A DNA stretch of 64,000 bases from an uncultured Verrucomicrobiae bacterium (GTDB lineage: Bacteria > Verrucomicrobiota > Verrucomicrobiia > Chthoniobacterales > JAFAMB01), in NCBI GenBank assembly GCA_963813025.1, contig CAWEXO010000001.1, forward strand, positions 64,001 to 128,000, read 5' to 3'. The position numbers were made by a program, and so were the translations under genes. This document shows, one piece after another, positions 6,743 through 46,731 of this stretch. Each line of letters begins with the position of its first letter. Position 1 is the first letter of the stretch. The notes beneath the pieces were generated by a model. That model searched no databases and had not been told where the DNA came from. It saw nothing but the letters and a program-made list of their open reading frames with translations.

Positions 6743-6902
6743 GGTAGGCGAGAGTTAGAGATCGTCTCACAGTGCGACACGGTCCCGTGCGGTAGGGCGA
6801 AAATTTTATTTGAGCCGTCCTGGATGGTGGTAACTCCAGCCTCCGGCTCAAACGAGTCCTCGCTGAGGCTCAAATAAATTTTCGCCCTACCGACACGGGG
6901 CC
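6743..6902. repeat. GTAG-type REP-like composite repeat (family A) with MITE-like end at 6758
   Basis: CGGTAGGGCGAAAATTT (6790) and inverted AAATTTTCGCCCTACCG (6877-6892) flank a TTTGAGCCG..CGGCTCAAA hairpin; near-identical to copies at 14.2 kb, 29.4 kb and 44.9 kb. Confidence 0.85.
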
Positions 6903-29305: not shown

Positions 29306-29785
29306 CGGTAGGGCGAAAATTTTAGAGAACGTCTCGCAACATCCGCTGACCCACGACCGGTAGGGCGAAAATTCATTCGAGCGCCAGCGAGAACTTGTTT
29401 GAGCCGTCTTGGAGGGGTGGCACACTCCTTGTGTCCGGCTCAAACGAGTCCTCGCTAAGGCTCGGATAAATTTTCGCCCTACCGGACCAGGGCCGAGGCT
29501 ATGTCGTGAGACACTCTCTTTTATGCGAGCCGCTTTCGGCATATTGGCGCGACATGGATACGTGTGGCAGGGATGAGCTCCCGACTACGGACAAGCCTTC
29601 GTCGCGGCCCGGATATGGAATGGCACAAACGCTTGAGCGGAGGGCGCGCCGTAGCATTGCGGAGGTGGCCTGCTCGTCCGGGTCGAGAGGTGGCCCGCGC
29701 GCTGCCGGTCAAGCGGGAGCATGCCCTGAGCCTGCCCCCTGCCAACGCGGGGTTGTGCAACAAGTCTCTAAATTTTCGCCCCCCG
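29306..29785. repeat. REP-like mosaic (families A and B) between recF and cytochrome c
   Basis: Contains the intact IS110 target CCGGTAGGGCGAAAATTCATTCGAGCGCC at 29357 and a segment shared with 14355-14473. Confidence 0.85.
29325..29518. mobile_element. 194-bp MITE-like element with imperfect 16-bp TIRs and TTTTA target duplication, nested in a REP-like repeat
   Basis: Ends GAGAACGTCTCGCAAC / GTCGTGAGACACTCTC (12/16 complementary); TTTTA at 29320-29324 and 29519-29523; removal restores GGGCGAAAATTTTAT.CGAGCCGCTTTC as seen in reverse at about 14515-14543. Confidence 0.7.
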
Positions 29786-39042: not shown

Positions 39043-39525
39043 ATGCTTTGTGACGTTTGCAAAACTAATACCGCGACAGTGTACCTGACGCAGATCGTGG
39101 AGGGGAATATGAAGAAGATCAATCTCTGCGAATCGTGTTCCAAAGAGAAAGGCGTCTCCGATCCAACCGGGTTCGCCTTGGCCGATCTTCTTTTGGGATT
39201 GGGTGAGAATCAACAGGTCGAGCAACCTGCTGTTACCGAGCATTGCCCGGTCTGCGGGTTCACTCAAGCGGATTTCAAGAAGACCGGACGACTCGGTTGC
39301 AGCGCGTGTTACGAAACTTTCCACGAAACCCTGGATCCCATTCTCAAAGCGATGCACAAAGGGACCCAGCACATCGGCAAAACCCCGACGCGCCTTCACT
39401 TCACGCAATCAGACCGTCTGAAAGAGCTGCAGCGTAGCCTTGATGACGCGGTCTCGCGCGAAGATTACGAGTCGGCAGCGAACATCCGTGACGAAATCAA
39501 ACAGCTGGAGGATAAAACGCAATGA
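39043..39525 (+). CDS. mcsA: Arginine kinase activator McsA (UVR domain)
   Basis: Four CxxC motifs, GRLGC, EDYE.AA.IRDEI. Confidence 0.92.
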   Translation: MLCDVCKTNTATVYLTQIVEGNMKKINLCESCSKEKGVSDPTGFALADLLLGLGENQQVEQPAVTEHCPVCGFTQADFKKTGRLGCSACYETFHETLDPILKAMHKGTQHIGKTPTRLHFTQSDRLKELQRSLDDAVSREDYESAANIRDEIKQLEDKTQ

Positions 39526-40637
39526 AGATAGCAGCGATCCTCGCCAGCCCAGGCGAGTGGGCGACCTCGAGCGCTGATCAACATCCAATTGTCATCAGCA
39601 GCCGGGTTCGGCTCGCCCGCAACCTGGCCCGCGCGCCCTTCCCGGGATGGGCAAAAAAATCCGAGCGCATGCGGATCCTGGATGAGATTAAGCCGGAGGT
39701 TGATGCCCTCGAAAGTATGTCTGACGCCTTCTCCACTCCGCTCAACGAATTGAGCGCCATGGAAAAGCAGGTGCTGGTCGAACGGCACTTGATCAGTCGC
39801 GAACACGCCGCGAAAGGCATGGGTAGCGCCGTTATCATTAATCCGTCGCAGACGGTGAGCATCATGATTAACGAAGAGGATCATCTCCGGATGCAGGCGA
39901 TCACCTCGGGTTTTGGTTTGCCGAGAACCTTTCAAATGATTGATGAAGTGGACACCGCTCTGGAAGCCCATCTGGAGTTCGCTTTTGATCCGCGTTTCGG
40001 CTATTTGACAGCCTGTCCGACCAATGTTGGCACCGGGATCCGCGCTTCGGCCATGGTCCACCTCCCGGGTCTGGTGTTGGGTGAGCAGATCAACCAGGTG
40101 GTGAATTCAGTGAACAAGATCGGGCTGGCCGTTCGCGGCCTCTACGGCGAAGGCACTGAGGCCATGGGCAATCTCTTTCAGGTCTCTAACCAGACGACTC
40201 TGGGCGAGAAAGAATCGCAGATTATCGATCGCCTCGGAAAAGTGGTTGAAACGCTGGTCCAGCGAGAAACGCAGGCTCGCGCCAATCTGCTGGAGACGAA
40301 ACGAAACGTCTTCCTCGATCAGGTGGGACGCGCCTTCGGGATTCTGACCAACGCCTACTCGATTTCCTCAAAAGAAGCGTTGAACCTGCTTTCGATCATC
40401 CGGCTGGGAATTGACTTGAGGATTTTCCCCGAGGAAGGGCGCTGCTTAATCAATCAGCTTCTGATGGAAACCCAACCGGCCCATCTACAACTCTCTTCCA
40501 AACAAAAACTGGCGGCCGAGGAACGGGACAATCTCCGGTCTGATCTTATCCGGGAGAAGTTGAAAAACTTTCCTAAACCACCTAATACTAGAGCGTCGGA
40601 CAGCCCGCCGGGAAGTTCGGCTTCGGAAGCAAGATGA
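39522..40637 (+). CDS. mcsB: Protein arginine kinase McsB
   Basis: SSRVRLARN, INEEDHLR, LTACPTNVGTG.RAS, RGLYGEG. Confidence 0.95.
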   Translation: MKIAAILASPGEWATSSADQHPIVISSRVRLARNLARAPFPGWAKKSERMRILDEIKPEVDALESMSDAFSTPLNELSAMEKQVLVERHLISREHAAKGMGSAVIINPSQTVSIMINEEDHLRMQAITSGFGLPRTFQMIDEVDTALEAHLEFAFDPRFGYLTACPTNVGTGIRASAMVHLPGLVLGEQINQVVNSVNKIGLAVRGLYGEGTEAMGNLFQVSNQTTLGEKESQIIDRLGKVVETLVQRETQARANLLETKRNVFLDQVGRAFGILTNAYSISSKEALNLLSIIRLGIDLRIFPEEGRCLINQLLMETQPAHLQLSSKQKLAAEERDNLRSDLIREKLKNFPKPPNTRASDSPPGSSASEAR

Positions 40638-43108
40638 TGAACAATTTCACTCCACGTGCTCAACAGGTTTTGGCGCTTGCACGGAAGGAAGCGGATCGGT
40701 TTAACCACAACTATGTGGGCACCGAACACCTTTTACTCGGACTGATCAAACTCGGCCAGGGTGTCGCGGTAAACGTCCTGCAAAAAATGGGACTCGATCT
40801 GGAAACCGTCCGCATGGAGGTGGAGAAGAAGGTCGGCTCCCATCCCGAGACGAAAATGGTGGGCAACATCCCGTATACTCCCCGGGTCAAGAAAGTGCTC
40901 GCCCTCGCCGGCAAAGAAGCTAAAGCGCTCAACCATTCCTACGTCGGCACTGAACATATTTTATTAGGGTTGCTCCGTGAAGGTGAAGGAGTAGCCGCTC
41001 GAGTCCTCAAAAGTCTCGAGGTCGATATCGAAAGAACCCGCAACGAAATTTTAAAAGAATTGGACCCGAATTTTACACCGCCGGAAAGCGAGGCAGAGAG
41101 CCCGCAGGAAGGCAATAAAAAAGATGTTAAAACGCCCGCGTTGCGGGCGTTTGGTCGCGATTTGACTGAACTCGCGAAGAAAGGCGAGCTGGACCCGGTA
41201 ATCGGTCGCAAGAACGAGATCGAACGGGTAATTCAGATTCTTTGCCGGCGGACGAAAAATAACCCAGTGCTGCTCGGTGAAGCCGGTGTTGGCAAGACTG
41301 CCATTGTGGAAGGACTGGCTCAGGAAATCGGGGCCGGCAATGTTCCGGAATTGCTGCGTGACAAGCGGGTGATCACGCTGGACCTGGCCCTCATGGTTGC
41401 CGGAACGAAGTACCGCGGCCAGTTCGAAGAGCGAATCAAAGCGGTCATGGACGAAATCCGCCGCTCCAAAAATGTGGTGCTCTTCATTGACGAGCTTCAC
41501 ACGATTGTCGGTGCCGGTTCGGCGGAAGGCGCCATGGATGCCTCGAACATTATCAAACCGGCTCTGAGCCGGGGTGAACTGCAGTGCGTCGGGGCAACCA
41601 CGCTGAACGAGTATCGCAAATACATCGAGAAGGACGCCGCCTTGGAACGGCGATTCCAGACCGTGAAAGTCGAAGCTCCTACCGTTGAGGAGGCGATCCA
41701 GATCCTGCACGGACTACGACCGAAGTACGAGGCCCACCACAAGGCCAAACTTACGGATGAATCACTCGACGCGGCCGTCCGCCTCTCGGACCGATACCTT
41801 ACCGGCCGTTTTTTGCCGGACAAAGCAATCGACGTCATGGACGAAGCAGGTGCCCGCGCCCGCATCAATGCCATGACTCGTCCGCCAGATGTCAAAGAGA
41901 TCGAAAAGGAGATCGAAGTAATCCGGGCCGACAAGGAAGCTGCCATCAAAGCGCAGGATTTTGAAAAAGCGGCCGCGCTGCGGGATTCCGAAAAACAGGC
42001 GAAGGACAGGCTGGAACGGATCCTGGCCGAGTGGAGAGAAAGGCGGGAGGAGCACGAGGTTGTAGTCACGGCGGACGACATCATGCATATCGTCTCAAAG
42101 TGGACAGGTGTCCCTTTGAACCGTCTGGAAGAGCAGGAGACTCAGAAACTCCTGAAAATGGAAGACGAATTGCGGACGCGAGTCATCGGCCAGGACGAGG
42201 CGGTTATCGCGATCAGTAAAGCGCTCCGGCGTTCCCGGGCAGATTTGAAGGATCCGCGGCGGCCGATTGGTTCCTTCATTTTCCTGGGACCTACCGGCGT
42301 GGGCAAGACATTCCTCGCGCGGACTCTCGCGGAGTTTATGTTCGGCGACGCGGATGCCTTGATCCAGATCGACATGTCCGAATACATGGAAAAATTCACG
42401 GCTTCTCGATTGATCGGTTCGCCTCCCGGCTATGTGGGTTATGAGGAAGGCGGCCAATTATCCGAGGCGGTTCGCCGCCGGCCCTATTCGGTTGTTCTGT
42501 TTGACGAAGTCGAAAAGGCGCATCCCGACGTCATGCATCTGCTGCTGCAGATCCTGGAGGAAGGTAAGATAACTGACAGTCTCGGCCGCAAGATCGACTT
42601 CCGGAACACGATCATCATCATGACTTCGAATGTCGGGGCCGAATTCATCAAACGCCAAAACGCGATGGGTTTTGGCGCGGCGTCGGGCCACGAATCTTAC
42701 GAGGCGATGCGCGACAAGATCTTGGACGAAGCCAAACGCGGTTTCAAACCTGAGTTCCTGAACCGCTTGGACGATATGATCGTGTTTCACACGCTGTCCC
42801 GGCAGGATTTGGTGCAGATCGTCGATCTGGAGGTGGCCAAAGTAACCCAGCGGGTTCGTGCAAAAGACATTCACCTGCAGCTCGAGTCGAGCGCAGTCGA
42901 ATTTCTGATCGATAAGGGTTACGACCCGACCTACGGCGCGCGACCGATGCGGCGAGCGGTCGAACGGTACCTGGAAGACCCTCTTGCCGAGGAGCTTCTG
43001 CGAGCGCGCATCAAAGCCGGGGATACCGTTGAGGTTTACGCCGCGGGCGAGCAACTCGCTTTCCGTCCGGCCCACGCTGAGCAGCCGCAAACGGCGGAGG
43101 CCTCCTGA
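40634..43108 (+). CDS. clpC: ATP-dependent Clp protease ATPase ClpC
   Basis: Two Clp_N repeats, [11 protein letters not shown] middle domain, [14 protein letters not shown]. Confidence 0.97.
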
Positions 43109-43209
43109 GGGGCTTGTCAAAAAACTAAATCGCTTGGGAGTGGGCGCGACGTGGCACCCGGTCATGTGCCGGTAGGGCAGTATCTGAGCAGGTCTGGCAA
43201 GGGAAAAAG

Positions 43210-44484
43210 TTAAAGTTTTTCACCGATTGGTGAGTGGCGTTTTTTGAGGACTTGGAGGTAGCGCTCTTCGTCATAAGGGGTGGGGTCCTGCCAGAGCCGG
43301 AAGATGACGCGGATCCATTTAAAGGCCAAGGCGCGCACGGCAGTGTGGTGGGACTTACCGCGGGCCATTTGCTCTTGATAATAGAGCTTGGCCCATTGGG
43401 AATAAGGAATGGAATGAGCCGCGAATTCGTGGAAGCTCTGGCACAGGAATTTGGAGCGAAAGCGCCGCCGCTGGACGCTTTTGGTTTGGCCGCTGCGCAC
43501 TTGGACCGGAGCGATTCCGCTTTTTTTCTGTACCTCCAGGGCTTGGGCAAAAGCCTGCCGATTGGAGCCAAAAGCCACCAACAAGCGCGGGGCTAATTGC
43601 GGGCCGGCTCCGGGCAGACTTTCAAAAATGTGCCGATCGGGATGTTTGGCAAACAGAGTGTGGATGGCTTTGTCAAAAGCCTTGATGGAATCTCGCAGCG
43701 GCAACAATTGACTGACCAAACACTTGCAACTCAGCACGGAGGGCTCCAGCAGAGAACGATCCTCGGTGACGGTTTGGGCCCGAGCAATCTTTTCCAAGCG
43801 CTCCTCGATCAAGCTCTGGCTGCGGCTGTGGTGCTGATAAAAAAAAGAGCGCAGGGTCTGGGGCTTGGCTTTTTTTAAACTCTGCAGGGTCGGCCAGCGT
43901 TTCAAAAAATGCAGCGCCAGAGTGGTGCCCAAATCATCGAGGAGCTCGAGGGCCAGCGGATAGTAGACTTTGAGTAAGCTGGTGAGTTGGTTTTCGCACA
44001 CCACGGAGGCCTCGACGGCTTTGCGTCGGTGCTGACCGAGCAAATCCAGTTCCCGCACTACCGGCTCCGAGGGTTGATAAAGCCGGAGCCGATCCCGATG
44101 GTGATCAACGAGCTCTTCGATCAATTGGCTGTCGCGAGGGTCATCCTTGGCGCCACTAGTAAAGAAGACCTTGCGGTATTCGCTTAAACTCAAAGGATTG
44201 AGCGGATAGAGGTCGATCCAGTCTCCCTGGGTGCGGAGCATTTCAAAGAGTGCTCCCCGATTTTGTTCAAAACCAATGGCCACCCGCCCCTGCGGACCAG
44301 CCAAGCTTTTGAGCTCTTCGAGCCAGGTCCGAACCGAAACGGGATCGGCGCCCAGCTGGAATGTCCGGCATCCTCCCTCCGGACCAGAGCGTTGACAGAC
44401 AGCGTGTTCTTTATCAGCCCAATCGATTCCCACGCTGACCATATAATGGGGATCTGGGACCGGAAACGGATTTGATCGGTTCAT
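43210..44484 (-). CDS. IS110 family DEDD transposase/recombinase
   Basis: GIDWA, GFEQ, KDDPRD (DEDD), SLPGAG, SGIAP...RSG; RBS AAGGAG. Confidence 0.95.
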   Translation of the reverse strand: MNRSNPFPVPDPHYMVSVGIDWADKEHAVCQRSGPEGGCRTFQLGADPVSVRTWLEELKSLAGPQGRVAIGFEQNRGALFEMLRTQGDWIDLYPLNPLSLSEYRKVFFTSGAKDDPRDSQLIEELVDHHRDRLRLYQPSEPVVRELDLLGQHRRKAVEASVVCENQLTSLLKVYYPLALELLDDLGTTLALHFLKRWPTLQSLKKAKPQTLRSFFYQHHSRSQSLIEERLEKIARAQTVTEDRSLLEPSVLSCKCLVSQLLPLRDSIKAFDKAIHTLFAKHPDRHIFESLPGAGPQLAPRLLVAFGSNRQAFAQALEVQKKSGIAPVQVRSGQTKSVQRRRFRSKFLCQSFHEFAAHSIPYSQWAKLYYQEQMARGKSHHTAVRALAFKWIRVIFRLWQDPTPYDEERYLQVLKKRHSPIGEKL

Positions 44485-44519
44485 GCTTGCTCCTTTTTTC
44501 TGGTTTTACCCAGCGCGAA

Positions 44520-44850
44520 AAAAGCCGCTTGGCTTTGGCCGTCCGAAATCCGTATAGTTAAGTCGTCGAAGTGTGAAGTGCTCGACCTCAACTAGAGTAT
44601 TCGTTGTGACGAATCAAAGCGCGACCGGCTGGCTCGAAACTCTGCCCTAAAGATCTCGCGGACCCGAAAATCCTATTCGTAGCCAGCCGGCGCGTCCTTC
44701 TTCGCGTGGGCAGCGCGGGATTTTGCCCGACTGCCCTTGGCAAAGAAAACCCTTTCTTTTTTCCAAAGCTTTCTTTTCTCCGGGCGGAGTTATTCACAAG
44801 CTGGAGCTCCGACCGGTAGGGCCTCCGACCACAGCTTGCTGAATAACTCC
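44520..44850 (-). ncRNA. Candidate IS110 bridge RNA (5' hairpin, target-binding loop, donor-binding loop)
   Basis: Stem-enclosed loops carry ATTTTCG/TAGGGC (match target) and ATACT/CTATAC (match end junction); begins just downstream of the junction -10. The 3' end is approximate. Confidence 0.75.
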
Positions 44851-44862
44851 GGACTTGCTATA

Positions 44863-44979
44863 CGAAAATTCATTCGAGCGCCAGGCGAGAACTTGTTTGA
44901 GCCGGGCGTTGGATGTGGCAGCTCAAGCGTCCGGCTCGAACGAGTCTTCGCCGAAGGCTCAGATGAATTCTCGCTACCG
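44863..44979. repeat. Right part of the interrupted family A repeat
   Basis: Colinear with 29366-29484. Confidence 0.85.
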
Positions 44980-45074
44980 ATTTTAGATTATTGCGGAGAC
45001 TGCCTCTTCCTCCGGCTTTCGTTGCTCCAGACCTTTTCCTTGCGCTCGGCCTGTTCGCGACGCGAGAATTTGCC

Positions 45075-45920
45075 ATGCTCTGGCAGGCACGCGGCCATCG
45101 TCTCGAATTGGGTCGGCAGGCCCAAATCATGGGTGTGCTGAATGTCACCCCGGATTCCTTCTCTGACGGTGGTCTTTACCTGGACCTCGACCGGGCTCTG
45201 ACCCACGCCCAAACGATGGCCGGCGCGGGGGCAGCCATTATCGACGTCGGAGGCGAATCCTCGCGTCCCGGCTCGGATCCGGTACCCCTCGAAGAGGAGG
45301 TTCGGCGAGTAGTCCCGGTGATTTCGGCCCTGCGGGAGCGATTGCCGGAAATCTTGATTTCTGTGGATACCTATAAGTCCGAGACCGCCCGTCAGGCGCT
45401 CGCGGCCGGAGCGGATATCGTGAATGACATTTCCGCCGCACGAGATCCAGAGATGCTCGCGGTCGTTCGGGAGTTCGGCGCCGGCATTATTCTGATGCAC
45501 ATGCAGGGAGTTCCGAAGACGATGCAGCTTTGTCCTGCTTACCGAAATGCGATCGACGAAGTCGTCGAATTCCTCGAGAGACGCCGAGATTCTCTGGTGG
45601 CGCAGGGCATCGCTCGAGAGCAGATTGGGCTTGACCCCGGATTTGGTTTCGGCAAACGGCTGCAGGACAATATTGTGCTGGCGGGTAACTTGAAGGAGTT
45701 GGCCAAGCTGGGTCAACCAGTCGTGGTTGGCCTTTCCAGAAAATCCAGCTTGGCCCAACTCCTCGGCGATCCGAAGTTGAACTACAGTGGACGGTTCTGG
45801 GCGACGATCGCTTTTACAAGCTACCTGCGCGAACAAGGCGCTCAGGTTGTGCGCGTGCATGATGTCCGGCCTAACGTAGAAGCAATTCGGATGACTGAGG
45901 CGATTCTGAACGATGAATGA
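45075..45920 (+). CDS. folP: Dihydropteroate synthase
   Basis: MGVLNVTPDSFSDGG, DVGGESSRPG, DPGFGFGK, SRKS, RVHDV. Confidence 0.96.
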   Translation: MLWQARGHRLELGRQAQIMGVLNVTPDSFSDGGLYLDLDRALTHAQTMAGAGAAIIDVGGESSRPGSDPVPLEEEVRRVVPVISALRERLPEILISVDTYKSETARQALAAGADIVNDISAARDPEMLAVVREFGAGIILMHMQGVPKTMQLCPAYRNAIDEVVEFLERRRDSLVAQGIAREQIGLDPGFGFGKRLQDNIVLAGNLKELAKLGQPVVVGLSRKSSLAQLLGDPKLNYSGRFWATIAFTSYLREQGAQVVRVHDVRPNVEAIRMTEAILNDE

Positions 45921-46731
45921 CTTTTTGTTCCAGTTCCTGAAAAATTACTGGAACGCCGGCATCGAGATCTTGCTGCTGGCCGTGGCTATCTATTACGGGT
46001 ATCTGTTTTTCCGGGGAACTCGCGGGGCCAAAGTGCTCACCGGATTGGCGATTCTTTTCATCCTGCTGACCCTCGTTTCTCAGCTCTTGAATCTCACGGT
46101 GATCGGCTGGCTCTTGCGGAGCCTGACCGCTTTTCTCGCGATCGCCCTAGTGGTTATCTTCCAGCCCGAACTTCGACGAGCTTTAGCCGAGCTCGGCAGC
46201 AGCCGGATCTTCGCCTCTCCGTCGCAGGAAAAGGAGACGATCGACCTCATCACCGAAACTGTTTTTGAGCTGGCCAGTCGCCAAATTGGAGCGCTTATCG
46301 CTATCGAGAAGGACACGGCCATTCGCAATTTTGCGGAAAGCGGAGTTAACCTGGACTGCGAAATCTCACCCGAGCTGTTACTGACCATCTTTTTTCCGAA
46401 GACTCCTCTTCACGACGGTGGAGTTATCATCCGTAACGATCGCATCAGTGCGGCCGCCTGCATTTTTCCGGTAAGCCAGCGCGAGGATCTGGATCGCACG
46501 CTCGGTCTCCGCCACCGGGCCGGCTTGGGAATCACTGAGGAATCCGACGCCGTCGCTATCGTAGTTTCGGAAGAAACCGGGAGTATTTCCATTTGCTCTC
46601 GCGGCAAGATCGAGCGCGGCTTTCACCCCGCTCAGTTCCAGAAGCGGCTTTCCGAGCTTCTCTTGCTCGATCACGCTCCATCGGAGGCCGAGGAGAGCGA
46701 CGAACTCCAACGCGAGCAAACAATCCCCTGA
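45913..46731 (+). CDS. cdaA: Diadenylate cyclase CdaA
   Basis: Three N-terminal TMs, FQPELRR.L, PLHDGG, GLRHRA, VSEETG. Confidence 0.95.
   Translation: MNDFLFQFLKNYWNAGIEILLLAVAIYYGYLFFRGTRGAKVLTGLAILFILLTLVSQLLNLTVIGWLLRSLTAFLAIALVVIFQPELRRALAELGSSRIFASPSQEKETIDLITETVFELASRQIGALIAIEKDTAIRNFAESGVNLDCEISPELLLTIFFPKTPLHDGGVIIRNDRISAAACIFPVSQREDLDRTLGLRHRAGLGITEESDAVAIVVSEETGSISICSRGKIERGFHPAQFQKRLSELLLLDHAPSEAEESDELQREQTIP

Follow-up and report, generated by a model that had tools for sequence, protein, structure and literature searches.

How an insertion sequence comes to rest at one exact base of a repeat that recurs across a genome, and how much sequence it has to share with that repeat to do so, are the questions raised by an IS110 element in the DNA of an uncultured Verrucomicrobiae bacterium. 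The element lies within a stretch of 64,000 nucleotides (hereafter, the window, to which positions refer unless a contig label is given). Below, we consider in turn its boundaries and gene, its copies elsewhere in the genome, the repeat that it occupies, the RNA predicted from its non-coding end, and the bases at which the two DNA partners appear to be joined.

The element and its recombinase

The element spans 1685 bp on the minus strand (43179..44863), and its excision regenerates a 29-bp string that is also present at 29357, as would follow from the base-exact ends claimed in the first-pass annotation of this DNA. Every coordinate given in that annotation holds, with the single shift that a target site placed at about 29469 belongs at 29470 on the minus strand. 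The boundary can slide by one base, 43178-44862 being equivalent, with one C (G on the element's strand) standing at both ends. The assignment to the IS110 family is likewise sound: the CDS at 44484-43210 matches PF01548 and PF02371, as well as NF033542 at 144 bits (cut-off 140). The predicted product is a DEDD recombinase of 424 aa (43210..44484, minus strand), in which the PF01548 DEDD domain is combined with a PF02371 domain bearing the catalytic serine, and D21, E73, D115, D118 and S331 are all intact. The insertion is scarless and site-specific and lacks terminal inverted repeats, as is usual in this family, and the arrangement of a long left end with a predicted bridge RNA (379 nt; 44485..44863, minus strand) and a short right end (31 nt) is that of the IS110 group to which IS621 belongs. 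Both flanking genes are unbroken, namely clpC (40634..43108, plus strand), which follows mcsA-mcsB-like genes, and a pterin-binding, folP-like gene (45078..45920, plus strand). The wider surroundings (39043-46731) are of a housekeeping character, the mcsA-mcsB-clpC cluster lying before the element and folP-cdaA-like genes after it.

The further proposal that the element is intact and probably active stands in part. The catalytic residues and the reading frame are intact, but S139 and P401 are private to this copy, the nine others having P and R at these positions. R401 is found in 51 of 61 aligned homologues, so that the change from Arg to Pro in this copy hits a conserved site. Because its enzyme carries these two private changes, one of them at a conserved site, the description 'active' fits the family better than this particular copy, whose recombinase may be impaired, unless S139 and P401 prove to be assembly errors.

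Copies of the element in the genome

The genome holds ten full copies with the same ends, 98.3-99.9% identical, and one partial copy, a left-end fragment. A search for further copies had been put forward as a check on the ends, and all ten full copies, together with the partial one, sit at the same base of the same repeat with outer flanks that differ. The ORFs of all ten are open, and the divergent copies are set apart by 18-21 silent changes and 4-5 further amino-acid changes; this IS110 family has spread recently in the genome. Individual copies show peculiarities of their own. The left-end fragment (C1:207767-207985) ends inside the target-binding loop described below, immediately before its right guide. 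The copy at C16:83670 has lost one base from the conserved right-end motif, and may be immobile or reflect an assembly error. The copy at C13:131626-133310 is a mosaic with divergent-type alleles mid-gene and majority-type alleles on either side, which points to recombination between copies.

An intergenic palindromic repeat as the target

The repeat occupied by the element had been described as a GTAG repeat and as an intergenic 'safe harbour', and both descriptions agree with its distribution. Perfect TAGGGCGAAAAT sites occur five times in the window, at 6793, 6878 (minus strand), 29309, 29361 and 29470 (minus strand), in keeping with the count given in the first pass; with two sites that have one mismatch, this makes seven, against 0.32 expected by chance. 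Across the genome there are 127 perfect (empty) and 233 near-perfect arms, gathered in 147 clusters. Head-to-head (plus-minus) pairs account for 52 of these clusters; their spacing is in most cases about 122-124 bp, and each pair folds into a single long hairpin. The repeat thus carries the GTAG tag, is palindromic, intergenic and of high copy number: 8 of the 127 perfect sites fall in ORFs of at least 200 aa, whereas such ORFs make up 72% of the genome. At the locus itself, the element interrupts one such palindrome, whose outer tip (the right target arm and the shared base) lies at 43169..43178 (plus strand), and whose remainder, beginning with the left target arm, lies at 44864..44971 (plus strand) and folds back on the tip once the element is removed. 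An empty unit of the same repeat, with its arms head-to-head, is found at 29357..29485, and the arms at 6793, 6878 and 29309 are further members.

The related claim of REP targeting holds in that a REP-like GTAG palindromic repeat is targeted, but the RAYT link of the repeat was not found. The repeat lies beside none of the three Y1_Tnp loci in this genome (80% complete), two of which are flanked by another GTAG repeat, and 15 of the 27 Y1_Tnp loci from three relatives, when examined for a flanking repeat, gave one weak match. Two RAYT-like Y1 transposase genes (L002 and L003, on C5 and C14) are flanked by arrays of a second GTAG repeat family that is not the IS110 target. Of 42 other genomes from the family, 15 also contain the target repeat, and about eight of these have 7-60 copies. 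At L280 (G007), the same arm is found in tandem arrays about 90 bp apart, not in long head-to-head palindromes.

A predicted bridge RNA that reads the repeat

The 379-nt left end folds far better than its shuffles (z -6.19 for 44485-44850), and the fold comprises a 5' hairpin at the predicted +1, followed by two stem-loops that each open with ACGAAU. The 5' hairpin, of 65 nt (44786..44850, minus strand), begins at 44850, and a start near this position had indeed been predicted to coincide with the first hairpin of the non-coding end. Its apical part has a 10-nt copy of the target's right half (44813-44822), placed between two 8-nt direct repeats and varying in relatives, which may be a matter of chance or a half-site decoy. 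The first of the two stem-loops is the putative target-binding loop (44620..44694, minus strand), with a left guide at 44665-44673 and a right guide, including core and handshake bases, at 44641-44649. The second is the putative donor-binding loop (44533..44619, minus strand), with a weak left guide at 44595-44602 and a right guide, again including core and handshake bases, at 44549-44557. In the target loop, GGAUUUUCG as the left guide and UAGGG-CA-GA as the right (UAGGG being the guide itself) read the two arms of the repeat; the donor loop has the weak left guide and CUAUA-CG-GA, the latter of which reads the left end of the element.

These complementarities are maintained as the sequences diverge. 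In relatives at 68-69% protein identity, the left guide has become AGGUUUUCG and the flank AGGTTTTCG, the two having changed together. Over 30 guide types, the match of guides to their own flanks is 6.27 of 7 on the left and 4.53 of 5 on the right, against 4.58 and 2.04 when shuffled (0 of 5000 shuffles, with the reservation that kin are not independent). The right guide is mis-slotted in two of the 30 types (L084 and L120), which lowers the score, and no rows were dropped; L011, whose guides do not match its flanks, was set aside from the comparison. The left-end pattern scans took in 59 genome stretches and at least 121 of about 230 metagenome stretches, with long flanks for 80. An alignment of 30 RNAs yields 18 consensus pairs, 12 of them with two-sided changes, which cover only the outer target-loop stem and one donor-loop stem; within the window there is no match to Rfam. 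As in IS621-type elements, the target-loop guides are complementary to both arms of the target and covary with them. In the donor loop, the right guide matches the donor and covaries, and the left guide matches five bases here and two to three in CT relatives. The first-pass annotation had missed this readable bridge RNA, whose predicted guides spell the repeat and covary with targets over the 30 types, and we regard targeting of the repeat by a bridge RNA as highly probable.

It might be argued that the target is chosen mainly by the shape of the repeat hairpin or by protein contacts, with the guide matches secondary, given that the element sits at the tip of a long palindrome, and a target stem-loop adds specificity in the case of ISPpu10, according to the available part of that report (10.64898/2026.03.19.712850). 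However, the guides covary with many different targets among relatives, and variant arms of the same palindrome go unused: the guide-matching AAAAT arm is occupied at 11 of 138 sites and the GAGAAT variant, which differs by one base where the left guide would pair, at 0 of 47 (p 0.036). We hold this alternative to be most improbable. As a separate observation, L063, L081, L107, L209 and L218 are left-end fragments with only the 5' hairpin of the IS110 clade, lying at target-like sites; they are possible mini-elements or aborted one-sided insertions.

The donor-loop guide also bears on an irregularity of the left junctions. The first 13 bp of the element are tandemly duplicated at three of 11 left junctions (C13:92670, C11:77964 and C1:207985), which belong to three different repeat units. 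Among the matches listed from relatives, the duplication is seen in none of 164 distinct left-junction contexts, and excision scars, in the form of the 13-bp piece without the element, are absent from the 14 matches. Because the inner junction of the duplicated end pairs perfectly with the right guide of the donor loop, a likely source is a half-match event at the left end of the element itself; alternatively, the duplications may have had one origin and then spread, or may be an assembly fault. Half-match insertion events (10.64898/2026.08.31.748434) and tandem growth (10.64898/2026.08.14.744561) are both described in the accessible parts of these preprints.

A single shared base at the proposed crossover

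The only unusual part of the element is its crossover, which the first-pass annotation did not remark upon. The target core is CG and the ends of the element are TG, with one shared base, G, in nine of the ten full copies; the remaining one (C4) has G at the left junction and A at the right. Cleavage by IS621 falls after position 9 on the top strands and between 9* and 10* on the bottom strands, T9 being near-invariant and read by the protein, and the handshake bases pair with positions 6-7 after exchange (PMC11208158). The available text also describes a four-base stagger of the cuts over the mismatched positions 6-7 (PMC11208158; PMC13626964). The matched two-base core with T at position 9 that typifies IS621 is absent here, and target and donor, as they stand in the assembly, have no matched two-base core in whichever register they are cut.

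This condition is shared by a minority of relatives. Among 52 full elements, 45 are CT/CT, five are CG/TG and two have a cut flank. The 164 distinct left junctions among the matches listed divide into 140 with CT, 20 with CG and four others, and the 92 parsed rows among the matches listed that pair the left-junction core with the donor-loop guide give CT with AG in 83, CG with CG in eight and CC with AG in one. In the window's own group (support 1.0), the target carries CG and the donor TG, the donor-loop guide having changed from AG to CG alongside. Protein searches recovered two other lineages with this pattern: L038, with target CG, donor TG, and guides CA and CG; and L031, with target CA, donor TA, and guides UA and UG. 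Both agree with CT-core relatives in loop lengths and spacing and differ from them in the core-binding slot, which reads CA in L038 and UA in L031. The empty sites in their genomes (five and seven, respectively) all have one shared base and the same long flanks as the filled site, and it is these flanks, not the counts, that carry the point, for reversed-pattern controls gave three and two matches. L031 is sister to the window's group (0.99), and L038 is placed elsewhere among the CT-type elements. Non-CT junctions (also TG and AT) with matching guide bases, read by eye, are further seen in L007 (TT/AT), L135, L260, L262 (A at position 9), L263 and L264.

The role of the shared G depends on where the top strands are cut, and we consider a cut on its 3' side to be the probable register. 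Under a different register of the same RNA-guided element, the top strands would be cut 5' of the G, giving a donor core CT and a target core TC with no shared core base, and the G would be the first base of both right arms. The window's target loop has one base more before the conserved 3' motif than CT-core relatives, and alignment from the 3' side suggests this second register, the right arm becoming [UAGGGC][AG][AG], with the AG slot of the CT-core relatives. A cut 5' of the G would also retain the T that IS621 reads through G63 (PMC11208158). The C4 copy suggests the same, barring later mutation, as it would have taken its right-junction base from a variant target; the variant, with A at the shared position, is present at three of 133 empty sites, and it is from this single copy that the origin of the shared base is judged. 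Against this, alignment of the donor-loop arm, of the 17-nt spacer described below and of the TATAG start favours the other register; L038 and L031, with loops of canonical length, still read CG/TG and CA/TA; and the last core base varies in the left junctions of CT-type L198 (CC) and L081 (CG), as expected if that base is derived from the target. Taken together, these observations leave a cut 5' of the G unlikely.

The circle junction as a predicted promoter

The ends had been proposed to form a promoter only when circularised. The hexamers are TGGCAA at 43195-43200 and GCTATA at 44857-44862, which, once the ends are joined, become TTGCCA, 17 nt and TATAGC. The predicted -35 box (43195..43200, minus strand) would thus be supplied by the 31-nt right end and the predicted -10 box (44857..44862, minus strand) by the left. 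This layout, dependent on joining, is kept in relatives: in reconstructed circles (n=52; 51 relatives and the window), the -35 scores at least 5/6 in 42, as against one of 47 in the linear state, and the best -35 lies 17 nt from TATAG in 52 of 52, with ties resolved to 17 and ends anchored on motifs. Linear sites within this genome reach 2-4 of 6 for the -35. The -10 is spelled TATAGT in 33 of the 52, TATAGG in 16, TATAGA in two and TATAGC in one, the last being the window element and the weakest of the set. A working junction promoter in the window element is likely; such promoters are established for IS621 (PMC11208160) and ISEc11 (PMC11187229) in the parts of those papers that are available.

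The circle junction has no match in the assembled genome, assemblies being prone to drop rare molecules, and neither circle nor tandem junctions occur in the 164 distinct left-junction contexts in relatives, among the matches listed. In contigs of two sequencing runs over 42800-45300, the element of a relative is found with identical ends and without a joint, though contigs cannot show the absence of a circle, and viral contigs gave no match for either end pattern.

The hexamers could instead serve end recognition and not transcription, the RNA and enzyme being made from an internal promoter or by read-through, as in ISPpu9. The first five bases of the -10, TATAG, double as the right donor arm paired by the guide, and the -10 itself agrees with the consensus at 4/6, its final T missing. 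In the accessible text on the Pseudomonas elements, ISPpu10 has a working junction promoter and ISPpu9 is an IS110 element whose circles form none (PMC12288879), and linear IS621 is described as weakly transcribed in the available part of another source (PMC13626964). However, the 14-mer paired by the guide does not include the -35, which resembles TTGACA at 17 nt in 42 of 52 relatives, and no minus-strand internal promoter is called in 43000-45100, in a scan that would also miss TATAGC. We therefore find a role confined to end recognition rather unlikely.

The spacing of the junction bears equally on a one-strand copy-out or direct transfer, in which a circle, if made, would join CT directly to TATAG, and a one-base target duplication would account for the G present at either end. 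For IS621 and CazIS110-1, excision of the top strand only and direct transfer are reported in the available portions of two preprints (10.64898/2026.08.31.748434; 10.1101/2025.10.25.684509), and CT-TATAG is the ancestral junction of the clade. Yet the spacer would drop to 16, against the 17 seen throughout the reconstructed circles, and an extra base would have to be gained in ten of ten copies, which makes this course very unlikely.

Recognition of the element's ends

The left donor guide is near-constant across the clade, pairs with only two to five bases and mismatches the shared G. The ends also carry an imperfect sub-terminal inverted repeat (9/11), with its left arm at 44849..44859 (minus strand) and its right arm at 43187..43197 (plus strand). 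In 12 elements found without the end pattern, this repeat covaries (5.17 of 8 against 3.8; 0 of 5000), with four matching poorly and L263, which is probably anchored on the wrong motif, kept in the test. We infer a role for the sub-terminal repeat in recognition by the protein; short imperfect repeats are mentioned for IS110-type elements in the available text of PMC11187229.

A proposed course of insertion

The ends, the copies, the guide-target complementarity and the covariation in relatives are read directly from the sequence, and the course set out here would connect them. On balance, we favour an account in which an IS110 element is guided by its bridge RNA to one exact base of a palindromic intergenic repeat, with a crossover that would share one base, G, and not a matched CT pair. 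The ends would first join as a circle, CAGATAC-TG-TATAG, thereby creating the TTGCCA-17-TATAGC promoter, which would fire at about 44850. The target loop of the RNA would then pair with (G/A)AATTTT-CG-CCCTA, and the top strands would be cut 3' of the shared G, as at IS621 position 9|10. Position 8 would be left unmatched (C in the target, T in the donor), and as both right guides carry a base predicted to pair there only after strand exchange, it would probably act as a third handshake base that favours insertion. Since pairing by the left donor guide is poor throughout the clade, it is probably the right donor guide, together with the sub-terminal inverted repeat, that holds the donor. Besides the loop alignment and the C4 copy, several points count against this account: the left donor guide fails to pair with the shared G, the final T of the -10 is missing, and no change in the protein appears to explain the lost preference for T9. 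In the loop after the second catalytic residue, none was found that would account for G9, EQNRG and EQSRG occurring in both CT and CG types.

Implications and comparison with known systems

Extended to its bridge-recombinase clade, found mostly in soil Verrucomicrobiota, this account would imply that the core is no constraint: position 9 would be set by the RNA alone (T, G or A being the natural variants), position 8 would be free to differ between the partners and would be a third handshake base, and the donor would be held by the sub-terminal repeat, not by the left donor guide. We advance this generalization tentatively, as possible but short of probable. If true, a single common base, whatever its identity, would be the most that such enzymes require of the two DNA sites they join, and cores orthogonal to CT would become available; orthogonal cores are being sought to stop guide cross-talk, according to the accessible part of a preprint (10.64898/2026.04.29.721476). 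Current bridge-editing designs need a matched NT core, mostly CT, a rule that a one-base crossover would loosen; the IS621 design tool, as described in the available text, returns an error when cores are unmatched and warns when they are not of the NT type (PMC11208160). Elements occurring in nature whose position 9 is G or A and whose position 8 is unmatched offer a ready means of asking whether the core is dictated by the protein or by the guide alone, and how the mismatched region of four bases is resolved. In the same text, pipelines call cores as repeated ends, with a preference for CT (PMC11208160), and may in so doing have dropped unmatched cores; shared bases have also been argued not to be a general feature of the family (PMC11187229, available part). 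No natural element of this kind is described in the openly accessible text on unusual or mismatched cores that we covered; one paper recovered there deals with bases adjacent to the core (PMC13626964).

On the side of the target, the repeat resembles the GTAG-type REPs and REP dimers, which in the available text are likewise GTAG-tagged, intergenic and often in head-to-head pairs (PMC3733652), but it differs in that no RAYT gene is flanked by it in the loci examined and in that its unit is one long palindrome. The IS1111 group, as far as the accessible text describes it (PMC11187229), shares with the element sub-terminal inverted repeats and, as predicted here, a junction promoter. In that group, however, the long non-coding end is downstream of the transposase, and the sub-terminal repeats are near-perfect, of 11-13 bp, and lie 7 bp from the left end and 3 bp from the right, whereas here the long end is upstream, the right end is 31 nt, and the repeat is imperfect (9/11) and lies about 3 nt from the left end and 8 nt from the right. 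Among other multi-copy members of the IS110 group that target REPs are ISPpu10 and ISPpu9 of Pseudomonas putida; in the available parts of the reports, recombination of both takes place at a dinucleotide common to the partners (CT, or AG when read from the opposite strand), unlike that of the window element (PMC12288879; 10.64898/2026.03.19.712850). ISCro4/IS622 has the same two-loop logic and handshake mechanism (10.1101/2025.05.14.653916; PDB 9t56), with sites selected for CT or GT cores identical in both partners, again by the portion available (10.1101/2025.05.14.653916).

The closest point of reference is IS621 of E. coli (PMC11208160, PMC11208158, PMC13626964), which, in the available texts, has the same DEDD and Tnp domains with a catalytic serine, a long left end with a two-loop RNA, a junction promoter of the kind predicted here, a REP-like target and handshake bases set for pairing after exchange. 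The protein match between the two is remote (E 7e-6, over the C-terminal part only). A literal donor 9-mer common to the element and IS621 was considered and dropped, the match being on the opposite strand and in another register. IS621 has a matched CT core with a near-invariant T9, whereas position 9 is G here and position 8 is unmatched; the present element further differs in a right target guide of 5 nt, a weak left donor guide and ends with a 9-of-11 sub-terminal repeat. Its predicted junction promoter and its REP targeting are of a kind already known from IS621 and ISPpu10 and belong to textbook IS110 biology. The element is thus best viewed as a modest extension of the IS621 mechanism and not as a new system, its unmatched, non-T core being the variant worth testing.
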